Positions 4,441 through 55,415 of a stretch of 64,000 nucleotides of DNA are shown here, piece by piece; the stretch's first letter is position 1; each line of letters starts with the position of its first letter. Source of the stretch: a bacterium (GTDB taxonomy: Bacteria; Bacillota_I; Bacilli_A; RFN20; CAG-288); contig CAVILQ010000009.1 in assembly GCA_963643715.1 (NCBI GenBank), positions 4,520-68,519 of the forward strand, in the 5' to 3' direction. Under the pieces are notes generated by a model. That model did no database searches and was not told the origin of the DNA. It saw only the letters and a program-made list of their open reading frames with translations. Position numbers and translations under genes: made by a program.

Positions 4441-5832
4441 TTATTTTTTGATTTTCCCTAAAACGATATCATCTGCCAAAAGGAAAGTCATATAAAGAGG
4501 AACTGTCAAAATATCATTTTCTTCATTGTAGCCGAGTTGATTCGAAGAAATCTTGATTGCTGTTGTTCTCTTATTATGTTCACGAAAATCCTTCAATGAA
4601 TTCAGGAATCTTTTGCCTTTCTTAACATCAATCGGGCAAATATCTCCATTGATATCAACAATGAATTCAAACTCATGCTGTTGTTTTCCTGTCCAATAAT
4701 AAAGTGGTATTCCTTTTGACACGAACTCATCAGCGACATACGATTCATAAAAGACACCAGAAAGCTCGTTTCTGCTATCTTTTGAAAGAAATGACGACTG
4801 AAGTATATTGCTCTCCTTTGCAAACAGTCCACAATCAGAAAGATACAATCGAAACAGTCCGCTTTCGTCTTCCATTAAAGGCGAAGTGACCTTGCCTTCC
4901 TTTCGTTTGCTTCGATATATGACATGGGCCAAATCCAACCATTCATATGCCCCAAAATAATCTCGGTTTGATTTTCCTCTTTCTATAGAGGCTATTTTGA
5001 AATTCTTATTTTCCTTATTCAGTTGAGCAAATATGTTCTTATAGATATTTCTTGTTTTTAGAATCATCTCATCTGAGATGTTATATAGACTCATATCAGC
5101 AATATAGTTCTCATACAATTCATTCAGAATCTCTTTTGCTTCCACATAGGAATGATTTTTCAAAAAGGAATCTACAACTTCAGGAAGTCCTCCGATGCAA
5201 AGGAATTCATGAAGCAGATCAAGAGCTAAATCATGCTCATACTTCTCTAATGGTTTATTTCTATCGTAATAGGCTTCTTTGATTCTAGTAAGCAATGGTT
5301 TATTCACGTTGAGAAGATATTCCTCAAATCCCATTGGATACATCGATAATGAATTTATCTTTCCAACTGGAAACATTACATTATCCCCACCATTCCTACA
5401 AGCACGCTGTAAAGCGAGTCGAACCATAGATCCTGTAATAATGACTGGTAATTCAGGATGGTCCTGATTGAAATACTTCAAAGACGTTAGAACATTAGGA
5501 ACCGTTTGTGCTTCATCAATGATAAGTGGGCATTCTTCAGAAATGACTTTCCCATAATTGCTCTCAATAAAACGAAGATATTTTTCATCATCTACAGTCT
5601 CGCTAAAATACTCGGCTGCTCTTTGATCCTTTTTCAAATCAATGTAAACATAATCCTTTGTAAAGTTCTTAGCAAACATCTCTTTGACAAGATATGTCTT
5701 CCCGGTTTGACGAGCTCCCCATATAACAAGAGGTTTTCGTCTATCTTTTTTCTGATACCATGCTAGTATTTTACTCAAATATATACGTTCCATAAACCAT
5801 GCCTCTCTATATGAATTATAATTGAAATTCAT
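4441..5832 (-). CDS. AAA+ superfamily ATPase (COG1373-like, Walker A GARQTGKT with DUF4143-type C-terminal half)
   Basis: GARQTGKT Walker A and IIDEAQ Walker B-like motifs; 463 aa. Confidence 0.7.
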   Translation of the reverse strand: MNFNYNSYREAWFMERIYLSKILAWYQKKDRRKPLVIWGARQTGKTYLVKEMFAKNFTKDYVYIDLKKDQRAAEYFSETVDDEKYLRFIESNYGKVISEECPLIIDEAQTVPNVLTSLKYFNQDHPELPVIITGSMVRLALQRACRNGGDNVMFPVGKINSLSMYPMGFEEYLLNVNKPLLTRIKEAYYDRNKPLEKYEHDLALDLLHEFLCIGGLPEVVDSFLKNHSYVEAKEILNELYENYIADMSLYNISDEMILKTRNIYKNIFAQLNKENKNFKIASIERGKSNRDYFGAYEWLDLAHVIYRSKRKEGKVTSPLMEDESGLFRLYLSDCGLFAKESNILQSSFLSKDSRNELSGVFYESYVADEFVSKGIPLYYWTGKQQHEFEFIVDINGDICPIDVKKGKRFLNSLKDFREHNKRTTAIKISSNQLGYNEENDILTVPLYMTFLLADDIVLGKIKK

Positions 5833-41573: not shown

Positions 41574-42518
41574 TTATAGTGAAGAAATAGATCCATAGAA
41601 CAACATGACATCATCGTAAAAACTAGCATAAAGGAAAGGTCGATCCAATGTGAGTTCTAGATCATAGGAGGGATCTACGTCTATTGGACCTTTTACTGTA
41701 AAGGAAGAGGCAGACACTCCATAATGATCAAAACTGAACTTATTCCCTTGATAACGGAATCCCGAAGTATCCATGTTCGCATACTGATATTCTTTTTCAA
41801 ACTCCGGAACATAAGCGTGAACTCTTTTCGTTTCTGTATTTTCTTGATAAAAATCTGATACAGAAACATCACTCAACGAATGATTTTCTGTTGGAAATAG
41901 AATTCTAAGTTCTGTCTGATTGATGGTCAAAGAAACATAGGTATAAGAATCATTCAAGACAGTAGAATAATCGCCGATAAATTCAACATAGGTATGTTTT
42001 CCCTCTCCATTGAACTTCATATCCTTCTTTGTATCATGAGGAATCAGGAATCGATCATTCAAATTCAACATAGAGAAATAATAGGTTCCGTTATTGGATA
42101 ATTTGACATCCTTATCATAAAAACGAGATAAAGAGTGATTCAGTTCATCAACAGTCCCCTCAAAATAAGAGACTTTAGAAACACCCTTATCTTCTATTTT
42201 TTCTGTCGAAGCCACTGCAAAATTATCCGACAATTCGAAATTATCTTCATTCTGGTTCAGTTTCTTATATAATGCAGAAAAAGTGTCTTTATCATTTTGA
42301 TAACTGTCGACCAATCTAAGGCTGACAGGTGAGACAACACAATTATCCGAAACCGTCAGATCATTTGAATTCTCTTCCTTCAGATACTTCTTTTCATCTT
42401 CAGAAAACGAGATTCGTTTATTAGAAATAGTAGGTTTACTGATTGTTTCTTCCGCATAAGCGACATTATTACAGGAAATGAGGAAGACAGACAATAATGG
42501 CAAAAGTTTACGTTTCAT
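41574..42518 (-). CDS. hypothetical secreted lipoprotein
   Basis: Signal peptide with lipobox LISC; 314 aa; no recognisable domain. Confidence 0.45.
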   Translation of the reverse strand: MKRKLLPLLSVFLISCNNVAYAEETISKPTISNKRISFSEDEKKYLKEENSNDLTVSDNCVVSPVSLRLVDSYQNDKDTFSALYKKLNQNEDNFELSDNFAVASTEKIEDKGVSKVSYFEGTVDELNHSLSRFYDKDVKLSNNGTYYFSMLNLNDRFLIPHDTKKDMKFNGEGKHTYVEFIGDYSTVLNDSYTYVSLTINQTELRILFPTENHSLSDVSVSDFYQENTETKRVHAYVPEFEKEYQYANMDTSGFRYQGNKFSFDHYGVSASSFTVKGPIDVDPSYDLELTLDRPFLYASFYDDVMLFYGSISSL

Positions 42519-44885: not shown

Positions 44886-46097
44886 TTAGGCAGCGACATA
44901 GAAGAAGTTGAGTTCTTTAACAACAGTGAGAAGGATAACCCAGATGATGATACCAACAACAGCACCAAGAGTGGAAACCAAGGATATGTGAGAAGCCATT
45001 TCTTTTTCTTTGTCGAAGGAAATGCAATAACCGACAGCGACAGTGGCAGGCGGAACCATCCACGTGATGACAGCAGAGTTGACAGTATTCATAGAAATAA
45101 GCTGTGAAACATCAGAAGTAACACCATTAACAGTCTTTAAGATACCTGTTGCATTTGCGATACCCTGGATAGCGAAGAGAAGGACTAAGACGATGATAGG
45201 AGCGACGAAGACCTTAAGAGCGGTCCAGATCCAAGCATACTTATCAGCAATAGCTTCCTTGAAGTTTGTCTTTCCTAAAGTGCATCCGATAGCGATCAAG
45301 ATGACTGTGGAGGAAAGTCCACCTAATGTGTTAGCAGCCTGGTAGATCCAAGGCAATGTGACATCAATTCTCCAGAAAGCAACTTTCGTTTCAGAAACAT
45401 TAGTGCTGAGCCAATCAGTACGGACCATACCAGAGCCCGGGATAGCCTGTAAGAGCCAGAGGATAAGACCGGCGAAAGTAGCGATAACGATAGGATTGAG
45501 CAAAGCCTTCTTCAACATAGACTTGATATCAGTCTTAGGCTTTGCAGGAGCATCACCATTCAAGGAAATGTCTGCTTCAGCATCGGTATCGGTAAGGTTG
45601 GCGATAGCGACATAAGCATAAGAATATAAGAAGACACGATAGGCAACGTTCATGACGTTGAAGTTGTTACCAGCATCCTTGCCAAAGAGAGAAGAAATTA
45701 AAGGATAGGCGAAGAATGTGGTAGAACCGAAAGCGAACAAGACAGCAAGAACGACACGTTTCTTTTTGTCCTTAACCCAGATAAAGAGAAGCTTGCCGAC
45801 GAAGATGAAGAGAATGTAGAGAATGAAACCAAAGACGAAGTTGAAGAGAGCGTCGATGGCACCACTGACCGTGAAAGTTGACATAAAGGAGCAGAAGGCA
45901 AGGCAAGGAATACAGATTGCCATGACGAACTTGGTCAAAATCGTACCGGTGTTCTCAGGGATAAGTTTCTTTTTTGTAAAAATGAAACCTACAAGAATAA
46001 AGATGATAGTCTTTGCAATGTTGATCCAAAGATTGTTGGAAGACATTGCTTTTGCGATATTGGAACCAATATCACTTGCTAGTACAAAGTCAGACAT
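44886..46097 (-). CDS. AEC-family membrane transporter (malate permease / auxin-efflux-carrier type)
   Basis: 403 aa with about 10 TM helices in two halves; AEC-like N-terminus. Confidence 0.55.
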   Translation of the reverse strand: MSDFVLASDIGSNIAKAMSSNNLWINIAKTIIFILVGFIFTKKKLIPENTGTILTKFVMAICIPCLAFCSFMSTFTVSGAIDALFNFVFGFILYILFIFVGKLLFIWVKDKKKRVVLAVLFAFGSTTFFAYPLISSLFGKDAGNNFNVMNVAYRVFLYSYAYVAIANLTDTDAEADISLNGDAPAKPKTDIKSMLKKALLNPIVIATFAGLILWLLQAIPGSGMVRTDWLSTNVSETKVAFWRIDVTLPWIYQAANTLGGLSSTVILIAIGCTLGKTNFKEAIADKYAWIWTALKVFVAPIIVLVLLFAIQGIANATGILKTVNGVTSDVSQLISMNTVNSAVITWMVPPATVAVGYCISFDKEKEMASHISLVSTLGAVVGIIIWVILLTVVKELNFFYVAA

Positions 46098-46378
46098 TTA
46101 GTTAATACCTCCAATAAACTGACACGCATATTCTACTAAGTTTTTGCATTAAAACCATAGCAATTTGATAAAAAATTCGTGTAAGCGGTAGATTTTTCCA
46201 CATACGTGAAATAAAAATGATTGTTTCTTTATCAAACAATGCACATATTTTTGCTTTTAAGCAATAAATGTGCAAAAAGCAATGGATTAAAGTGATACTA
46301 CTTCAAAGCTGTCTTGATAAATCTTCTCACTAAAATAGTGAATTCATCTCTTTTTAATGTTGTCTTAAGAAACCAAAA

Positions 46379-46439
46379 TTGCCAACTTGCCAAACAAAAC
46401 ACTGCCAAATTGCCAAATAAATCATTGACAAATTGCCAA
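46379..46439. repeat. array of six TTGCCAA-like heptamers (TTGCCAA x4, CTGCCAA, TTGACAA) about 120 nt upstream of the RHS gene
   Basis: Read directly; copies are 8-15 bp apart. Confidence 0.8.
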
Positions 46440-46554
46440 ATGGAAAGTGTTATTCCTTCTTTTTTTCTGGCATACTTATGAAGAAGAAATAGGCATCAAA
46501 TCATTTTTACCCTTAAATAAAGCTTAAACTACTTTATATAATGTGATATGATAT

Positions 46555-49500
46555 ATGTGTAAAAAACGAAAGGACTTATGTCCTATGACAGCAAGCAAGG
46601 TATCAGCACAACGCATCAACTCACATCACTCATATATCGGAAGCAACCCGGAATGGTCGCTCCTTGACGGCTCCGTCCACTATTCTTATCCGATCTGCTC
46701 ATTCGGAGGAGGCCATTCCTTTTCATGTGAACTCATTTATGACTCGAACCTGCCTATCATCACCAGCGAAAAGTTCGGCGGCATGCCGTACTGCTTCATG
46801 CTGTCCTGCCACGCAAGGCTGATGCAATCGGAAGGCGGATATATCTTCGTCGATGAGGAAGGCATCCCCCATCTTTTCACAGGCTTCATCGATCAGGGAG
46901 ACACCTACTATCATGACAACGACGGGCTTGGCATGATCCTAGATGACCACAGCGACATCAGAATCGACAACGGATTCGGAACTATTCTTTACTTTGACGA
47001 CAGCATGAGACTGAGCAGGAAATGCTCTCCTGGCGTCTTTGAGATCTCCTACTCTTACGATAACATAGGAAGACTGACTTCAGTGTCGGACACGACAGGA
47101 AAGAAGCGAAAGTTTGTCTTCGAATACGACGGTGCCCTAGCCTTTGTCAAATCATATTATGAAAACAAAGTAGTTTCGATAACAAAGATAGGCTATTCAA
47201 CGAAACACGTTCTTAACATCGTAGCGAAGTGGCAGTTGCTTTCCCTTGACAGGATATCAACGGAGAACGGTTCGCAAGCAGAGCCTTTGCTCAGAATAAA
47301 GTATAAAGAGCAGGTCTTCAGCGAAGAGCCTCCCGCAGTCGAGTTCGATGACCTTTACAATCATTCAGCATTCCGGATAACATATGTAGGGGAAAAAGCC
47401 GCTAGACTGTCGTTCTCCGACATTGCCGCCGGCCTTTCGTTTAAAGAAAAGTCCTGTCTGGAAATGGCCGCTGACGAAGACATGGTCACCGTCAAGGACC
47501 AGGACGGCAAGCAAACATCATACATGCTAGACCAAAAAGGATACATCGTCTCATGTTTTAGAAAGGACGAATACGGGAATTTGCTCTCACTAGACAAGCC
47601 TATAGGAACCCGACTCGTCCTGACTAACGCTGAGACAGGAATAGATACGCTTCCGATCAGGACATGCGACAGAGGTCTCCCCGTCAAGATAACGGAATGC
47701 ATCCCACAGGGCAAAGACAAGGCCTCTCCTCTCTCAACGCTTCTCATCGACAAAGGCTGTTCTCTTTCCGTCTATGTCAGGCTGAAGGAGTCGCATCCTG
47801 GTGCCGTCCTTTCCGCCTCGGGATTCGTTTCGGCCGCGCTGAACCCCTATGCTGTCGGAACATGGCAAAAGGCACGGCTCGGGTTCAAGGACAGCAAGAC
47901 ACCGTCCGAACTGAAAATCAGTGTCACCAATGACCTGGGGGTCGCATTCAAAGCCGACATCTGTGAGCCGGTCATCGTGAATTCCGGCACCGAAAGACTG
48001 ATCCTCGGGGAAGCAGAACTCAATGAATTCAGCAGCCTGACAAAGAATTGTGAAAGAATCCGCGGCGTCGTCTCCAAGACAGACCTTCTGACCAGCATGA
48101 AGCATTTCGTGTTCTCTGACAGCATCACATATTTCCTGTGGATGAACAACGGACACGACGTCATCCAGATGGACAACGTTTCCTTCACCCTGAACGGCAG
48201 AGAGGTCCTTTTCACCGATTTCCTGAGGACGCAGGAACTGACGCTCGTGAAATATGACACGCAGAATGGATTCATGCGCGAAAGGAAACTCAAGAGAAAC
48301 GGAAACCATCAGATAACGGATGAAAAGACGATATCAGATGCCAACGGAAACGCCATCGAGCACGAGAAAAGAATGCGCGATGTCACAAATGAGGTGGTGC
48401 TCGACTCCTACGGTCTCCTTCACAGAAGCCAATATACTTCAGACGGACTGCCCTGGAGGCAGTACGACAGCAATGGCAAAGTCATCTCCGAGAATGAGTA
48501 TGACAGCGATGGGAATCTTACCTGCGCGAAGACCGATACCTCCACGCATCATTACACCTACAGCATGGGAACTCTGTCCTCAATCGCAAACGGCGGCGTG
48601 ACAAGAAGCATATACTATGACGGATTTGGAAGAACCGGCGGAGTTCGCTTTACAGACGGAAGCGAAAATCGGTTCGGCTATTTCGGGAGCCATCTGTCGT
48701 CAATCAGCGACAGTTCGATAGGAGTCGCCTTTATCACGGATTCCAGAAGGGATTATGAAGACTACTACATAAACAAGAGCCTCATAGAGCATGTGGAAAA
48801 CGGCAGTCAGACAAGGAAGAAGACATACCCTAACGGAACAGGAATCACGGAATGCTATGACAATGACGGGAATCTGATATCCGTGGTCGGCAACGGAACG
48901 GACACGGCCACAATCACAAGAAGCCCTGACACTTCCTTGCCTGTCACAGTCAAGGACGGATTCGCCGACATGACTACTGACATCGAATACAGAGGAGACA
49001 AAAGCGTCCGAAAGACTACGACGAGAAAAGGCGGAAAAGTCTATCTCACAAAGGAAGAGATACATAGCGAGTATGACACCGAATTTGTCATTGGACCTGA
49101 CTCCCTGCCATACAGAAAGGCTATAAGCAAACAAAATGCGCTCATCCGTATCATCTATGACAATGGCACTCACAAGGTCAAAGGGCTCGGAAGCGACACC
49201 TATCTCGATGCTTTGGCAAGACCGTCCAAGAAGCAAAGCGGACCGATAAGCTGCTCCTACCAGTATAAGAACGGTTCCTCTCTCCTTCATAAGCTTAGCT
49301 GTGACGCCTTCACCGAGGAGCTAGAGTACGAAAATGATTCCTTCCTCGTGTCGAAGGCAGTCTTTTCCGGATACATAAATGAAACCGATAGTTTCCGATA
49401 TGACTCATGCGGCAGACTACTTGAGGCAAGAAGAACAGGTAACGGCGATTACCGGCATATTTACAGCTACAAAGGCTCCAGGCTTGATGAAATCAAAGAT

Positions 49501-50769
49501 TACCTAAAGATAATACGCGGCAGCGACGGACTCATCAGCTCCGTTGAAGACTACCTTGGGAGAAGGCATATCGGAATCAGCTATGACAGTGCCGGAAACA
49601 TGACAAAACATGGAGACAAGGAACTCAGCTACCAGTACGGGCATAGGTTAAGCAGTGTGAAGGAAGGGCTTAACGAATCCAAATACCTATATTCCTATGA
49701 CGGGATACGCATCGAAAAGGACGTGAACGGGACCAAGACAACCTTCTACTATGACGGCAAGACTCTCTTAGGCGAGGATCGCGGCGATGAGATACGCATC
49801 CGCTATTTCCAAGACACGAACTCCTACACCGGATTCACACTCGAAGAGAAGGGGACTGACACGTTCTACCTATATCTAAAAGACTCGTTCGGAAACATAA
49901 TCGGCATCATCGACAGCCAGGGATATCTCGTAGGAAGATACATCTACGACGAAAAGGGAAGGCTTCTCGGAACGGTGCCAAACAGCAACATCAAGGATGC
50001 CGAGCACATCCTTGACATCAACCCTCTCAGGTACAGAGGCTACTACTATGACGAGGAAACCGGCTTCTATTACCTCCACGCAAGGTACTATGATCCGATT
50101 TCCATGTCTTTCCTTACCCCTGATGACAAGGAAAACATCGACGGATATTCCGTTTCGGGCGCTGATCCATACTGCTACTGCAACTATGATCCCGTCAACT
50201 ACTTCGATCCGTACGGGACCATCAATGTCCTTATAGCATTGATGCTGATCGGAGCCGCAGTCGGCGCACTCAGCTACACGGCATCGTCACTCATTTCCTA
50301 CGCCGTGACTAGAAAATGGTCCTGGTCTTGGTGCCAGTTTATCGTATCAACATTTTTTGGTGCTCTAGAAGGTGCATTGACCTTTGCTCACATACCACCC
50401 GTTTGGAGTTATTTAATTTTTAGTTCTTTACCAACAGGTATTGGTATGTGTTTACAAAATATCTTTGAGGGGACAGATTACACAACCAACCAAATCTTAA
50501 TTTCGTCAGCTTTTAGTTATTTTTTATCAGCTTTTCTCTCACGAATTCCACAGTTCTTAATCAAAGGACTTAATTATGGAAGAAACAGTTTTTCAGAAAT
50601 TGCTAGTTCAATAACAACAAAATATGCGAACAATGTAATCAAAAACATGTCAATGAAGACCATGGGAAAAATATTCATTTCCAATCTTTATGACTCCACA
50701 TATGGGATACTTTCCGATGCCTTTTTTAGTATCCTCGACGACGATGAAAAGGAGGAAGCATTTGCATAA
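46555..50769 (+). CDS. RHS/YD-repeat polymorphic toxin with hydrophobic multi-helix C-terminal domain
   Basis: Many YD repeats (YDSNGKVISENEYDSDGN, YYDGFGRT, YSYDGIR...). The RHS core ends at ARYYDPISMSFLTPD...DPVNYFDPYG, followed by about 180 aa containing four hydrophobic helices. The body is high-GC and GC drops at about 50335. No signal peptide. An alternative start exists at 46585. Confidence 0.85.
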   Translation: MCKKRKDLCPMTASKVSAQRINSHHSYIGSNPEWSLLDGSVHYSYPICSFGGGHSFSCELIYDSNLPIITSEKFGGMPYCFMLSCHARLMQSEGGYIFVDEEGIPHLFTGFIDQGDTYYHDNDGLGMILDDHSDIRIDNGFGTILYFDDSMRLSRKCSPGVFEISYSYDNIGRLTSVSDTTGKKRKFVFEYDGALAFVKSYYENKVVSITKIGYSTKHVLNIVAKWQLLSLDRISTENGSQAEPLLRIKYKEQVFSEEPPAVEFDDLYNHSAFRITYVGEKAARLSFSDIAAGLSFKEKSCLEMAADEDMVTVKDQDGKQTSYMLDQKGYIVSCFRKDEYGNLLSLDKPIGTRLVLTNAETGIDTLPIRTCDRGLPVKITECIPQGKDKASPLSTLLIDKGCSLSVYVRLKESHPGAVLSASGFVSAALNPYAVGTWQKARLGFKDSKTPSELKISVTNDLGVAFKADICEPVIVNSGTERLILGEAELNEFSSLTKNCERIRGVVSKTDLLTSMKHFVFSDSITYFLWMNNGHDVIQMDNVSFTLNGREVLFTDFLRTQELTLVKYDTQNGFMRERKLKRNGNHQITDEKTISDANGNAIEHEKRMRDVTNEVVLDSYGLLHRSQYTSDGLPWRQYDSNGKVISENEYDSDGNLTCAKTDTSTHHYTYSMGTLSSIANGGVTRSIYYDGFGRTGGVRFTDGSENRFGYFGSHLSSISDSSIGVAFITDSRRDYEDYYINKSLIEHVENGSQTRKKTYPNGTGITECYDNDGNLISVVGNGTDTATITRSPDTSLPVTVKDGFADMTTDIEYRGDKSVRKTTTRKGGKVYLTKEEIHSEYDTEFVIGPDSLPYRKAISKQNALIRIIYDNGTHKVKGLGSDTYLDALARPSKKQSGPISCSYQYKNGSSLLHKLSCDAFTEELEYENDSFLVSKAVFSGYINETDSFRYDSCGRLLEARRTGNGDYRHIYSYKGSRLDEIKDYLKIIRGSDGLISSVEDYLGRRHIGISYDSAGNMTKHGDKELSYQYGHRLSSVKEGLNESKYLYSYDGIRIEKDVNGTKTTFYYDGKTLLGEDRGDEIRIRYFQDTNSYTGFTLEEKGTDTFYLYLKDSFGNIIGIIDSQGYLVGRYIYDEKGRLLGTVPNSNIKDAEHILDINPLRYRGYYYDEETGFYYLHARYYDPISMSFLTPDDKENIDGYSVSGADPYCYCNYDPVNYFDPYGTINVLIALMLIGAAVGALSYTASSLISYAVTRKWSWSWCQFIVSTFFGALEGALTFAHIPPVWSYLIFSSLPTGIGMCLQNIFEGTDYTTNQILISSAFSYFLSAFLSRIPQFLIKGLNYGRNSFSEIASSITTKYANNVIKNMSMKTMGKIFISNLYDSTYGILSDAFFSILDDDEKEEAFA

Positions 50770-51323
50770 TGAAAAAGAAAATATATTTTCAAGACAGCAT
50801 CCCATATCACATTTTATTTTCTATCCCTTTAATAATTGGCATAGCAACAATCACGTTTGCAGTTGTAGAATTGATACATTCTCCTTCTACGAACTTATAT
50901 TTGAATATTTTTTTGATATTTGCTGGATTGTATTGTTTTTACGTCTTTTTAGACACAGAGTCTTTTATCATCCACATGGATGATAAAAAGGTTTGGATGA
51001 TAGGAGAACCTGTCATTGAACCTTTACGAACTCAGTACAAAGCTGAAGTCCTGTTTTCTGACATCATTAACATTTATATTGTCAGGTCTCACACAAACAG
51101 CAAAGGAAAAAAATATGAAAACAGAAACAGAAAAGTAAGACTTGGAATTAGAGCCTATTTGGTGTTTACAAAGAAGAATGGTCACAAGGTCAGAATGTTG
51201 GTCAGTTATCACACAAGGGAACATCTATTAGAAATCATCAGTGAAATCATCGTTCGAATCAATGCTACAGGTAACATATACGAAGGAAATGACCCTCTTT
51301 GGATTGTCAATCACATCAAATGA
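50769..51323 (+). CDS. candidate immunity protein (two-TM, 184 aa) translationally coupled to the RHS toxin
   Basis: Its ATG overlaps the RHS stop (TAATG). Two N-terminal TM helices. It is a paralogue of the next ORF, sharing the C-terminal IIRRINATGN.YEG..PLWI block. Confidence 0.65.
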   Translation: MKKKIYFQDSIPYHILFSIPLIIGIATITFAVVELIHSPSTNLYLNIFLIFAGLYCFYVFLDTESFIIHMDDKKVWMIGEPVIEPLRTQYKAEVLFSDIINIYIVRSHTNSKGKKYENRNRKVRLGIRAYLVFTKKNGHKVRMLVSYHTREHLLEIISEIIVRINATGNIYEGNDPLWIVNHIK

Positions 51324-51413
51324 AGAACTGCAATCTTTTTATAGCCATATAAGTTTGGCCTTATCAATATTATCGTTATAAACCATTTGAATTCAGTAAA
51401 GGAGAAACTGGTA

Positions 51414-52004
51414 ATGAAAAAGAAAACATATTTACAAAACGATATATCGTATTATATAGCAATGTTTTTAATGTTTGTGCTTGCACTTACATCTGTCGGT
51501 TTAGGAATTTATCCTCTTATAAAATTGTTTACATCAGAATCTGACACTCGAGACGCTTTAAATATCATCCTTTTGATAATTTTCTTAATTATTTTTCTCG
51601 CATTAGCAGCGTATGTAGTTTTTATTACGATTGGTGAAATGAGCATCATCATATATATGGATGATGAAAAAATATGGATGAACGATGACCTAAAGTTAAA
51701 AAGGCTGCGATTACAGTATAAAACTGAAGCATACTTCTCGGAAATTAAAGATATCCGTTTAATCAAGAACAAAAAGGATAGCAAATCACATAGTTTTCCA
51801 AAAGACAGCATCTATCCCGGAAAACAAAAATATCTTGTCCTTACAATGAAAGACGATCATGTCGAAAGACTGAATGTCACATATTTCAGAAAAGGAACAA
51901 TCGGAAAAATCATCTGTGAAATCATTCGAAGAATCAATGCTACAGGTAACACATACGAAGGAAAATACCCTCTTTGGATTTTCAATAACATCACCTTAGA
52001 ATAA
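51414..52004 (+). CDS. paralogue of the preceding protein (second candidate/orphan immunity protein)
   Basis: Same architecture with strong C-terminal identity and a diverged N-terminal TM region. Start taken at MKKKTYLQ, which has an AAAGGAG ribosome-binding site. Confidence 0.6.
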   Translation: MKKKTYLQNDISYYIAMFLMFVLALTSVGLGIYPLIKLFTSESDTRDALNIILLIIFLIIFLALAAYVVFITIGEMSIIIYMDDEKIWMNDDLKLKRLRLQYKTEAYFSEIKDIRLIKNKKDSKSHSFPKDSIYPGKQKYLVLTMKDDHVERLNVTYFRKGTIGKIICEIIRRINATGNTYEGKYPLWIFNNITLE

Positions 52005-52030
52005 TCCTATTAGAATCATCAGCCAAGAGA

Positions 52031-52065
52031 AAAGGCAAGCCGTATGATTGACTTGCCTTTTTTTG
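52031..52065. terminator. bidirectional intrinsic terminator (aaggcaag-...-cttgcctt-TTTTTT)
   Basis: Hairpin plus a T-run between the convergent 51414-52004 and 52073-53362 genes. Confidence 0.6.
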
Positions 52066-52072
52066 ATTTGAA

Positions 52073-53362
52073 TTAAGAACGTGCCTGATAGACTGGCTTA
52101 GATGTATCGGTTGTCGTGGGAGGACAGATACGATTCATGATGAAGACAGCACGGATAAGGTTTGCACCGATGATAATCATCATCGAATAGTTGGAAGCGA
52201 AGAATCCGAAGATCATGCTAAGGAGTGCAGGAGTGAGAGACATGTTCACAGCGGTGTTGATAGCATGGAAGTAGTTGCTTTCACGATAGATAGAGGACTT
52301 TCTCTTGAAGAAGATGATAAGAAGGACAGAGGAGACAAGGATAGAAGCAGCACCAGCAACGGTGAGAGTAAGAATATTCATCCAAACGGAATGAATCGTA
52401 TAATCTCTTGCCGATTCATTCGCTAAGGAAACGAAGTTGTTTGTGAATCCATCTTGGATGTTATAAGCACCCTTATTGAGGATGAAATCATAGAGAGAAG
52501 TAGAACCATTGAGATCCATCTTAGCAAGACCTAAATCCAATTTGCCAACATAGGAACCAGATGCGCTTGTAGTGGATGTTGTAGCAGTGAAAGGATAGAA
52601 GGCGACTAACATATAATCCTTGAGAAGGATCATATAGGAATGCGGAACGTTATGATTCACACCATTGAGGTCTTTGTTCAAGATAATGGTAGTGGTGAAG
52701 TTAGAAAGATATGTGGAGAAATTATCATCGTTTCTGGAAAGCTCCGGTAACATATAGAGTTCAAGATAGATTCTTCTTTCTGTTGTTTCGGTCTTTGTCT
52801 CAGTGCCGTCGCTGTTCTTAGTTGTGTTGGTGACATTGATATCTGCACCGATGGAATCGAAGTAGTAGATTTTCTCCATATCGGTAGCTGTCTTAACATA
52901 GGGGCTAGCACCATCACTGACCTTATCGACATAAGTAGAACGGAATAATGCTTTATCGCTGGTTCCATTCAATTCGTTAGTCCAGTTATAGGCGCTATCA
53001 TCACCTGTTTTTTCACCATAGTACTTTTCATCATTCAATCCAGAGAGATCAAGAGTGCGAACACCATCTTTTTCAACGATATTGATGCTCTTGAAGTAAT
53101 CCTCTTCAGAGATGACATGCTTCAAAGCAGTAGAGACTTCATAATTGCTCGTGCTAGAAAAGACAGCTCCTCCATTGGTACGATATCCTGTGGAAAGGGT
53201 AGGAATCCAAGGAAGAAAAATAGCAAGAACAAACATAGTCAGAGTGACATACCACTTCATTTTGCGGTTGTCTAAGGCTGCTTGGTTGCTGTACAAAGAT
53301 TTTAATATGTTTTTGAGTGTGAACATTTTTCTTTTTTCCTTATTATAAATATATAAAGACAA
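52073..53362 (-). CDS. hypothetical membrane protein (N-terminal TM, large extracytoplasmic domain, C-terminal TM bundle; ABC-2-permease-like topology)
   Basis: Hydrophobicity pattern only; no partner ATPase is adjacent. Confidence 0.4.
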   Translation of the reverse strand: MSLYIYNKEKRKMFTLKNILKSLYSNQAALDNRKMKWYVTLTMFVLAIFLPWIPTLSTGYRTNGGAVFSSTSNYEVSTALKHVISEEDYFKSINIVEKDGVRTLDLSGLNDEKYYGEKTGDDSAYNWTNELNGTSDKALFRSTYVDKVSDGASPYVKTATDMEKIYYFDSIGADINVTNTTKNSDGTETKTETTERRIYLELYMLPELSRNDDNFSTYLSNFTTTIILNKDLNGVNHNVPHSYMILLKDYMLVAFYPFTATTSTTSASGSYVGKLDLGLAKMDLNGSTSLYDFILNKGAYNIQDGFTNNFVSLANESARDYTIHSVWMNILTLTVAGAASILVSSVLLIIFFKRKSSIYRESNYFHAINTAVNMSLTPALLSMIFGFFASNYSMMIIIGANLIRAVFIMNRICPPTTTDTSKPVYQARS

Positions 53363-54443: not shown

Positions 54444-55415
54444 ATGACACTCAAACAAGATTTAAAGAACCTAAAAAACAAACTTACCGGTGACAAAGAT
54501 AAAGATATCGCTACTTTGAAAGCATCATTGACTGAATACGATGATCGTCCCTATAAAAAAGAGATAGTAGACCTGATCAATGAGATGATCGCACAGATGC
54601 TTTCTCCTTCAACGGATAATCCAGATTCCTTTTTGAAATCATTCCTTTCAAATTATGAGAATACTCTTCTTGAAATTAAACATTATTTGGACCAAGGGGA
54701 ATATGAACTTGCACTCAAACTATGCGCTCCAGCGGAAGAACTGTTAAATAAGCTCATAATTTTGGAATTAAAACTTCAAAAGTGCCCACCCTTGCCATTA
54801 AGATTTTACTTTTCCACGATAGAGTATGATTTAGCAATGAAATATTATCCAGAAGAGCAATTCATACCTCATGCTGATCCTGTCTCATTATCTATCCTAA
54901 AAGGACAAGCACTCTTCTTCTTAAAAGATGACAACGCTGCAATCGAAAGCATACGTCACGGCCTAGAACTAGATCCCGTATCAGCTGATGTATGTTTCCT
55001 TTTAGCTGATATCGAAAGACAGAGAATGAATTCCTACTCCTATCTTTCCTATATCGAACGTGCAAAGGATTGTCTTTACAAGAATGAAGACTACATCCGC
55101 TATTTGAAATATCTATCCGACTATTATCATGACTTTGAGCATGACGATAAGACAGCCACCAATCTTAAGACTCTCTATACCAAAGGAAAGACTTACAAAG
55201 AGATTACCCATGTAGGAAAGGAAAAATGGGCAAAGTCCCATAAAAAGATACTGACACAATTGGAGAAGAATAAAATTGATATATCTGTATCAGACAATGT
55301 CATCACCACTGCACTTGAGAAATACAAAGAATACATAAAAGAAAACGATAATGAAGGTGCCACATACTATAAAGGCATCTTAGACACCTTTATCGACACA
55401 TCAAAATTAGACTGA
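54444..55415 (+). CDS. hypothetical helical-repeat (TPR-like) protein
   Basis: 323 aa, alpha-helical-repeat composition; no enzymatic motif. Confidence 0.4.
   Translation: MTLKQDLKNLKNKLTGDKDKDIATLKASLTEYDDRPYKKEIVDLINEMIAQMLSPSTDNPDSFLKSFLSNYENTLLEIKHYLDQGEYELALKLCAPAEELLNKLIILELKLQKCPPLPLRFYFSTIEYDLAMKYYPEEQFIPHADPVSLSILKGQALFFLKDDNAAIESIRHGLELDPVSADVCFLLADIERQRMNSYSYLSYIERAKDCLYKNEDYIRYLKYLSDYYHDFEHDDKTATNLKTLYTKGKTYKEITHVGKEKWAKSHKKILTQLEKNKIDISVSDNVITTALEKYKEYIKENDNEGATYYKGILDTFIDTSKLD

Follow-up and report, generated by a model that had tools for sequence, protein, structure and literature searches.

A hydrophobic Rhs C-terminal domain and its linked two-helix immunity proteins form an uncatalogued, putatively membrane-depolarising toxin family of gut Bacillota

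What does an Rhs protein carry as its toxic payload when its C-terminal domain is hydrophobic and shows no mark of an enzyme? The question is raised by a 64,000-nucleotide stretch of DNA from a bacterium of the lineage CAG-288 (Bacillota_I; Bacilli_A; RFN20), namely positions 4,520 to 68,519 of contig CAVILQ010000009.1 in assembly GCA_963643715.1. This stretch is called the window here, and all nucleotide (nt) coordinates refer to it and to its forward strand unless stated otherwise. At 46555..50769 it holds an Rhs/YD-repeat polymorphic toxin gene, which encodes 1404 amino acids (aa) as the longest open reading frame (ORF) and ends in a C-terminal toxin domain (CT); two small genes, imm1 and imm2, follow downstream. 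An original prediction, made from the sequence alone, had suggested that the CT is a four-helix hydrophobic module that inserts into membranes, and that the two downstream proteins neutralise it there. We have found support for a membrane-inserting toxin in the hydrophobicity of the domain, its linkage to a family of proteins with two transmembrane (TM) helices, the retention of the immunity genes, the divergence between strains, and the likeness to Tse5-CT/Tsi5 of Pseudomonas aeruginosa. Overall, we estimate at about 65% the probability that this is an Rhs cassette whose CT, once released, inserts into the target membrane and depolarises it, with a membrane-anchored 2-TM protein as its immunity partner. 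It is a new, uncatalogued toxin family within an established kind of system, that is, Tse5-like without sequence similarity to Tse5-CT.

The 1404-aa protein matches RHS_repeat (PF05593, E 1e-10) in Pfam and the YD repeats (TIGR01643, E 5e-8) in NCBIfam, and among PDB sequences it matches solved Rhs shells with E values from 1e-14 to 3e-4. The Rhs-associated core, i.e., the plug and aspartyl-protease region, lies at 50014..50217 (residues 1154–1221; TIGR03696 in NCBIfam, E 2.8e-15) and contains the motifs R1177-Y-Y-D1180-P and D1212/D1218-P. It terminates exactly in DPVNYFDPYG, with DPYG at D1218–G1221 (nt 50206–50217), so the CT corresponds to residues 1222–1404. By homology, self-cleavage is predicted between G1221 and T1222; this junction aligns with that between DPDG and Q in the mosquito protein SGS1, which is a cleavage site (PMC9935623). 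At the other end, the longest ORF adds ten residues (MCKKRKDLCP, 46555–46587), and as the syntenic homologues of 1394 aa lack them, translation probably begins at M11 (nt 46585), for a product of 1394 aa. From M11 the N-terminus enters the Rhs shell directly. Neither Pfam nor NCBIfam gives a PAAR or any other N-terminal domain, and Pfam and the sequence reveal neither a VENN motif nor a match to CdiA or PT-VENN.

The CT itself (50218..50766, 183 aa) is a predicted six-helix bundle of an uncurated family. H1 (residues 1223–1252; 50221..50310) is a TM-grade helix with the GxxxG motif IGAAVGA, and is followed by an interfacial Trp belt, KWSWSW (1254–1259). H2 (1259–1277), H3 (1282–1304), and H4 (1311–1330), at 50329..50544, are marginally hydrophobic, rich in small residues, and polymorphic. 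Then comes a polar/basic tail at 50578..50739, recognised from conservation and from the AlphaFold2 model, with a GRNS motif (1342–1345), H5 (1346–1358), and H6 (1367–1395). The four hydrophobic peptides quoted in the original prediction are indeed present after DPYG, and all of them coincide with H1–H4 of the AlphaFold2 model.

We have scanned the whole 1404-aa protein for 19-mers with a Kyte-Doolittle mean above 1.6 or a Hessa-scale sum below 4. All the 19-mers past these cut-offs start at residues 1219–1230, i.e., where the core meets the CT and in H1; there is no such start before residue 1210, and the 19-mers in the remainder of the protein are nowhere near the values of the H1 region. 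H1 passes canonical TM thresholds, with a Kyte-Doolittle mean over 19 residues (KD19) of ~2.1 (up to 2.15) and a position-independent Hessa-scale sum of −0.1. Since the hydrophobic moments of H1–H4 are low (0.11–0.27) and each helix has at most one charge, these helices are not amphipathic; amphipathic helices had been named as an outcome that would speak against a membrane toxin. On the other hand, residues 1336–1404 (~70) are non-hydrophobic, comprising H5 and H6 and then an acidic end (1395–1404); the H5/H6 segment 1338–1375 has a net charge of about +4. The CT thus consists of an uncharged, non-amphipathic four-helix hydrophobic part and a polar/basic two-helix tail. The earlier picture of a four-helix hydrophobic module holds in that four hydrophobic helices are present and are conserved in 55 relatives, but only H1 is a canonical TM helix, and the domain has six helices rather than four, the last ~70 residues being non-hydrophobic and bearing the best-conserved motif.

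The AlphaFold2 model, built from an alignment of these 55 sequences, has a predicted local distance difference test score (pLDDT) of 86.5 and a predicted TM-score (pTM) of 0.78, while an alignment of 5 sequences gave a pLDDT of only 45. In CT numbering, the helices span residues 2–31, 38–56, 61–83, 90–109, 125–137, and 146–174, and the H5–H6 tail is packed with H1–H4 into a single domain. When the model is compared with known structures, it resembles S-components of energy-coupling factor (ECF) transporters, NDUFA11, Tim22, MreD, OEP16-3, TatC, FtsX, and Mgr2; the exceptions, i.e., Glypican-3 and lower-ranked, scattered soluble proteins, follow no pattern. The scores against the four-TM fold of Tim17/Tim22/Tim23, NDUFA11 (B14.7), and OEP16 and against the ECF S-components are too low for homology; moreover, the Tim17/22-type proteins and the S-components are resident subunits of membrane complexes, whereas the CT is a putative secreted toxin. 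Foldseek returned no significant match to the model (best E 0.49), and its weak matches are again mostly membrane proteins. In these comparisons no fold of a nuclease, deaminase, ADP-ribosyltransferase, peptidase, or colicin comes to the fore. A soluble enzymatic fold had been named as the other adverse outcome, and the CT as modelled is not one. At the sequence level, Pfam, NCBIfam, and PDB searches find no match to the CT, in agreement with the earlier claim that it has no nuclease or deaminase signature.

How widespread is this domain? A word-indexed homologue search returned only four relatives of the CT, which badly underestimates the family. We have therefore relied on HMMER, with which a CT-only profile was run exhaustively against 1.84 billion representatives (clusters at 50% identity); this gives 326 representatives at E≤1e-3, 97 at E≤1e-10, and 25 at E≤1e-30. 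The window CT itself matches the family hidden Markov model (HMM) with E 6e-62 over profile positions 2–177. The position of the domain was analysed in 159 of the 326 representatives, and 109 of them hold the full domain. Wherever upstream sequence exists in these 109, the CT begins within a few residues of the end of the Rhs core (NNPxxxxDPxG); five lack a recognisable core and ~20 are too short upstream to judge. It reaches the C-terminus, or comes within 52 residues of it, in all but four. The carriers are Rhs-sized proteins of 1281–2143 aa, or short orphan or fragmentary ORFs, and the Rhs proteins come from uncultured gut Clostridia, Oscillospiraceae, and Bacilli. Pfam matches among the members amount to no more than scattered weak echoes of glycine-zipper and transporter models (a few touch the Pfam Gly-zipper models with best E 0.003–0.016), and the family profile has no match among all PDB sequences.

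The alignment of 55 members reveals which features of the domain are kept. In H1, the hallmark IGAxVGA has G1233 conserved at 96% and G1237 at 91%, and the interfacial SW pair (S1258/W1259) is ~80% conserved. The H2 hallmark GSxxGGAxGG has G1269 at 100% and G1273 at 96%. In the tail, G1342 (100%), R1343 (82%), S1345 (95%), T1355 (87%), K1356 (93%), and K1372 (98%) stand out, with I1362, S1366, K1368, and T1369 as further conserved positions. H1 is TM-grade in 73–80% of these relatives, while their H2–H4 are 3–11% charged and consist of G, A, S, or T at about 50%.

In some members (P0093, P0095, P0101, P0103), DPxG and H1 are separated by a further helix that is very hydrophobic. A plasmid-borne Rhs protein of Bacillus thuringiensis (L002, 5603–6190), which arose from a tblastn match running past DPxG, was rejected as a family member: only the GxxxG first helix is common, and an unrelated, very basic tail follows. 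A Chryseobacterium Rhs protein (L026) matches only H1–H4, and weakly. In view of these cases, the N-terminal helices of the CT may be a module common to other CT types.

The second element of the system lies directly 3' of the CT. The start codon of imm1 (50769..51323, 184 aa) overlaps the Rhs stop codon (ATGA), and imm1 is the probable cognate immunity gene. It is followed by its paralogue imm2 (36–38% identity), whose longest ORF is 51387–52004. The start of imm2 is probably ATG 51414 instead of TTG 51387, which gives 51414..52004 and 196 aa, the same length as its homologues. Both proteins open with MKKK, and in their N-terminal part two hydrophobic segments (about residues 13–35 and 42–63 in imm1, 11–33 and 49–73 in imm2) precede a soluble part of ~120 aa, so the earlier claim of two TM helices in each stands. 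The TM helices of imm2 are much more hydrophobic than those of imm1. As the MKK N-terminus is invariant in the family and two TM helices follow, the positive-inside rule predicts that the soluble domain of imm1 is cytoplasmic. A profile built from imm1, imm2, and one homologue finds 45 clusters. The family has no Pfam or PDB match; in NCBIfam it touches MAG1140_fam and STM3941_fam weakly (E 5e-4 to 3e-3, below cut-off). There is no cognate toxin for imm2 within the window, and imm2 is probably an orphan or reserve immunity gene.

The linkage between the two families is tight. Among 13 loci from species-representative genomes, recovered by a search with a 10-sequence CT alignment, a 2-TM immunity gene lies immediately downstream of the CT in 12, sometimes in tandem copies; these are metagenome-assembled genomes of Oscillospiraceae, Clostridia, Bacilli, Candidatus Coproplasma, and Haloplasmataceae. 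The 13th is the Chryseobacterium locus, with its weak match to H1–H4 only and without an immunity homologue. Outside intact Rhs genes, a 2-TM family member also stands directly 3' of the orphan cassette P0003 in L001, and immunity genes only 29% identical to imm1 follow orphan Rhs-CT fragments in L008–L011. In addition, the immunity genes outlive the toxin. Compared with window 46023–52143, the syntenic genome L003 (GCA_963624285.1) has cleanly lost nt ~46856–50759, i.e., the Rhs body and the CT, and keeps a 5' Rhs stub of ~300 nt together with imm1 (99% identical) and imm2 as orphans. In L006, a frameshifted Rhs gene stands ahead of intact immunity genes. In all this the CT-immunity loci behave like typical polymorphic toxins.

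Where the toxin and its immunity protein vary can be seen from three versions of the same chromosomal locus, namely the window, taken as reference, L012/L013, whose Rhs protein is P0050, and L004/L005, which together with L007 carry the window-type variant. The Rhs core is 95% (L012), 92% (L013), and 93–94% (L004/L005) identical to that of the window, and H1 is 100% identical in L012/L013 and 95–97% in L004/L005. For H2–H4 (residues 1260–1337), identity drops to 35% in L012/L013 and 73% in L004/L005, and then returns to 79% and 87% in the tail. For imm1 it is 54% and 70%, and for imm2 99% and 89–90%, respectively; that is, imm2 stays conserved between strains (89–99%) whatever the toxin variant. 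Within imm1, the TM helices are the least conserved parts (26% and 29% against L012, 52% and 62% against L004), while the C-terminal 44–46 residues are 83–89% identical between strains. DNA identity between the window and L012 follows the same course, being at least 95% up to nt ~50330, 42–62% at 50360–50600, 83–93% at 50600–50780, 50–67% at 50780–51200, and ~100% from 51260. This pattern indicates that diversification is confined to H2–H4 of the toxin and to imm1, especially its TM helices, as in the ionophore toxins of contact-dependent inhibition (CDI), which supports recognition within the membrane.

The base composition changes in the same place. GC content falls from ~0.50 in the Rhs core to ~0.33 (0.29–0.36) over nt ~50300 to ~52000, i.e., the CT from H2 on, imm1, and imm2, and both the GC and the identity breaks lie at about nt 50330, just downstream of the Rhs core. 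These observations are consistent with a horizontally exchanged CT-immunity cassette whose 5' junction falls not at DPxG but within the CT, downstream of H1.

Putting these results together, we infer the following course of events. By homology, the YD-repeat shell would encapsulate the 183-aa CT, and the aspartyl protease of the Rhs core would cut after DPYG, between G1221 and T1222. The released 20-kDa CT would then act on the cytoplasmic membrane of the target cell, where H1 and the small-residue-rich H2–H4 may insert as a four-helix bundle and form an ion channel or a proteolipidic pore through which the membrane potential is dissipated. The conserved basic H5–H6 tail would probably sit at the membrane interface and may aid insertion, oligomerisation, or gating. 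In the producer, protection would come from imm1, most likely through binding of the toxin within or at the membrane.

The closest precedent is Tse5 of Pseudomonas aeruginosa (PA2684, RhsP1; PDB 8cp6), in which an Rhs shell encapsulates a hydrophobic CT and cleavage by the aspartyl protease is required; Tse5-CT partitions into lipids and depolarises cells, the pores that it forms being ion-selective, and the 2-TM protein Tsi5 protects against it (PMC9637101, PMC10684867). The two systems share the Rhs shell, the protease plug, a CT of ~15–20 kDa without enzymatic signature, and an adjacent gene for an immunity protein with two predicted TM helices in the membrane. Tse5-CT has been described as a combination of TM and amphipathic helices (PMC9637101), and in its helical make-up, its lack of an enzymatic domain, and its 2-TM partner the window CT agrees with this description. 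There are also clear differences. The window Rhs protein matches 8cp6 only at residues 1148–1221, i.e., the match ends at the Rhs core, and when the CT profile is run against all PDB chains, those of Tse5 do not appear at E≤10. Tse5 is delivered by PAAR, VgrG, and a type VI secretion system (T6SS), while the window host is a Gram-positive-type gut Bacillota with none of these; imm1 carries an extra soluble domain of ~120 aa compared with Tsi5; and only the window CT family has the GRNS…TK…K tail.

Other non-enzymatic toxins share parts of this design. The CDI ionophores (CdiA-CT of Escherichia coli EC93, groups 1–6) are small helical bundles predicted to span the membrane, whose polymorphic helices contact membrane-embedded CdiI proteins (PMC11630599). 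As there, polymorphism is concentrated in certain helices and in a membrane immunity protein, here H2–H4 and the TM helices of imm1. However, their carrier is CdiA of Proteobacteria (type V secretion system, VENN, a separate entry domain) instead of an Rhs protein with DPxG, and they form five-helix bundles, in contrast to the six-helix CT model, with no sequence match in Pfam. Among the Bacillota, TelE is a glycine-zipper membrane-depolarising toxin of the type VIIb secretion system (T7SSb). TspA and EsxX of the T7SSb of Staphylococcus aureus are likewise Gram-positive polymorphic toxins in which small-residue/GxxxG helices depolarise membranes (PMC7456083, PMC12744356), with membrane-bound immunity proteins often encoded in tandem paralogous arrays. 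They differ in having an LXG domain and T7SS delivery and in belonging to other sequence families, and the glycine zipper is partly lost in H2 of the window CT. Neither an LXG nor a colicin signature occurs in the window protein or the CT family (Pfam, sequence), and the CT does not have the ten-helix build of a colicin channel domain. Tox-WTIP of Proteobacteria is a pore-forming toxin domain for Rhs/PVC polymorphic toxins with two TM helices and the motifs RxxR and Wx[ST]IP (PMC3482391); it is likewise a hydrophobic, non-enzymatic CT on Rhs proteins, but both motifs are absent from residues 1222–1404 as read from the sequence. The Rhs toxin LrhA with its partner LrhI from the T7SS of Listeria (PMC10327511) was considered and set aside as not of the same kind, its immunity protein having a single TM helix and an extracellular domain.

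Several observations weigh against a depolarising membrane toxin. H2–H4 are only marginally hydrophobic (KD19 1.2–1.5, Hessa-scale sums 5.5–6.2), and hydrophobicity alone would call only H1 a TM helix. In the window, H2 has V1264, F1268, and E1272 in place of three conserved glycines, which also puts a Glu inside this helix. The best-conserved residues of the family (G-R-N/G-S, T-K, K; window 50578–50670) lie in the polar tail, and from the alignment a site of binding or catalysis would typically show such a pattern too. The Pfam scan and the sequence of the Rhs protein reveal no signal peptide, LXG, or PAAR. Finally, over 16 distant toxin-immunity pairs (window, L001, L004, L010, L012, L014–L018, L020–L025) compared in mirror-tree style, identity in the soluble domain of the immunity protein follows that of the toxin tail (Spearman 0.76) far better than that of H2–H4 (0.27–0.34).

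Part of this can be put in perspective. The H2 variant of the window occurs in three other metagenomic contigs (L004, L005, L007) and is hence not an error. The zipper glycines G1233/G1237 and G1269/G1273 are retained, and judged from its residues the window CT is a divergent subtype of the family. As for delivery, signal peptides or long N-terminal extensions are present in other CT-family members. The correlation over the 16 pairs is opposite to the pattern at close range; it could be a matter of saturation in low-complexity helices, or could reflect a real contact of the toxin tail with the immunity soluble domain. The proposed neutralisation in the membrane therefore gains from the joint divergence of H2–H4 and the imm1 TM helices between strains, but as the immunity divergence of the distant pairs follows the tail, it is plausible and not settled.

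The same observations bear on a different division of labour within the CT, in which H1–H4 would merely be an entry module, comparable to the domains by which CDI toxins enter the cytoplasm, and the toxic unit would be the ~60-residue tail (GRNS…TK…K), acting on a cytoplasmic target and neutralised by the soluble domain of imm1. It would account for the near-invariant residues in the tail, for the predicted cytoplasmic location of the immunity soluble domain, and for its divergence being best correlated with the tail in the 16 pairs; a glycine zipper is reported to serve translocation in Tde1 of Agrobacterium tumefaciens (PMC10240207). We nevertheless regard it as unlikely. The tail has only two helices, which are packed with H1–H4 in one predicted domain, and it shows no enzymatic fold or family match. 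The near-isogenic strains keep the tail (79–87%) while H2–H4 and the imm1 TM helices diverge, contrary to what one would predict for a tail that determines immunity specificity, and the correlation may only reflect the saturation mentioned above.

Slightly less probable again, in our judgement, is that the CT inserts into the membrane without conducting ions and blocks an essential membrane protein or lipid carrier there, such as a transporter or the lipid II/undecaprenyl cycle. The compact and confidently predicted bundle does resemble subunits that dock on membrane complexes (ECF S-components, NDUFA11, Tim22, MreD), and the CDI ionophores depend on specific inner-membrane proteins as receptors (PMC11630599). 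But nothing in the analysis points to a specific target, and the characterised hydrophobic CTs of such size, i.e., Tse5-CT, the CdiA-CT EC93 group, TspA, and EsxX, all depolarise membranes (PMC9637101, PMC11630599, PMC7456083, PMC12744356). That the domain is no toxin at all, the hydrophobic C-terminus anchoring the Rhs protein in the producer envelope next to unrelated 2-TM genes, is highly improbable: H1 alone would suffice as an anchor and the protein has no recognisable export signal, but the CT lies beyond the conserved Rhs self-cleavage motif, orphan CT-plus-immunity cassettes exist without a shell, the 2-TM family is strictly linked, co-diversifies, and survives Rhs deletion, and the fall in GC from ~0.50 to 0.33 over the cassette is as in swapped toxin modules. 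The insertion of a depolarising CT thus remains the reading that we prefer.

Beyond bacteria, the Rhs protein raises a further comparison, with the mosquito salivary proteins SGS1 and SGS4 (PDB 8fjp, 9on3; PMC9935623), which likewise have hydrophobic helices directly after the DPxG of the Rhs core, inside the YD shell. Among PDB sequences, SGS1 matches the window Rhs protein best (E 2.7e-15), and the match runs 65 residues past DPYG. Window 50140–50412 (residues 1196–1286) aligns with 8fjp 2714–2796 and with 9on3 through H1–H2 (IGAxVGA, W.W, GxxxGAxxGA). Against the CT-only HMM, SGS1 segment 2734–2796 scores 14.8 bits, a value reached by 0 of 1000 composition-preserving shuffles, although SGS1 stays below the reporting threshold in the PDB-wide search with the CT profile. 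The similarity is weak and concerns only H1–H2; SGS1 has a longer helical region, an arthropod-specific Tox-SGS domain, no immunity gene, and a eukaryotic function. Common ancestry of the H1–H2 module and the 'daisy-chained' helices of SGS is, from the alignment, a weak lead. A bolder proposal would make the CT an undescribed, widespread gut Bacillota family in which a four-TM bundle like that of Tim17/22 or NDUFA11, with a 'GRNS-TK-K' cap, forms a new type of ion channel, and whose H1-side helices are ancestral to the 'daisy-chained' TM helices of SGS1. We hold this to be doubtful as a whole, though somewhat less so than the alternatives weighed above; if true, SGS1 retains a membrane-inserting toxin module.

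As for the neighbourhood, the genes flanking the Rhs locus are housekeeping genes, which occur even in loci that lack the Rhs gene. Three ORFs without Pfam match, at 52073–53362 (reverse strand, 429 aa), 54444–55415 (forward, 323 aa), and 41574–42518 (reverse, 314 aa), are probably unrelated to the toxin since they are syntenic with or without the Rhs gene.

Overall, these analyses bring out a common toxin-immunity module that has had no name: it is absent from Pfam, NCBIfam, and PDB, yet comprises 326 clusters at 50% identity. Natural near-isogenic variants exist in the window, L004, and L012; they differ almost only in toxin H2–H4 and imm1, and are well suited for work on specificity. The weak link to SGS1 suggests an origin for its buried TM helices. 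As the general principle has been established already, the gain lies mainly in the new family and the new taxonomic setting: if the CT depolarises membranes, the Tse5 paradigm, in which an Rhs cocoon chaperones an integral-membrane toxin, would extend from the Proteobacteria with their T6SS to Gram-positive gut bacteria.

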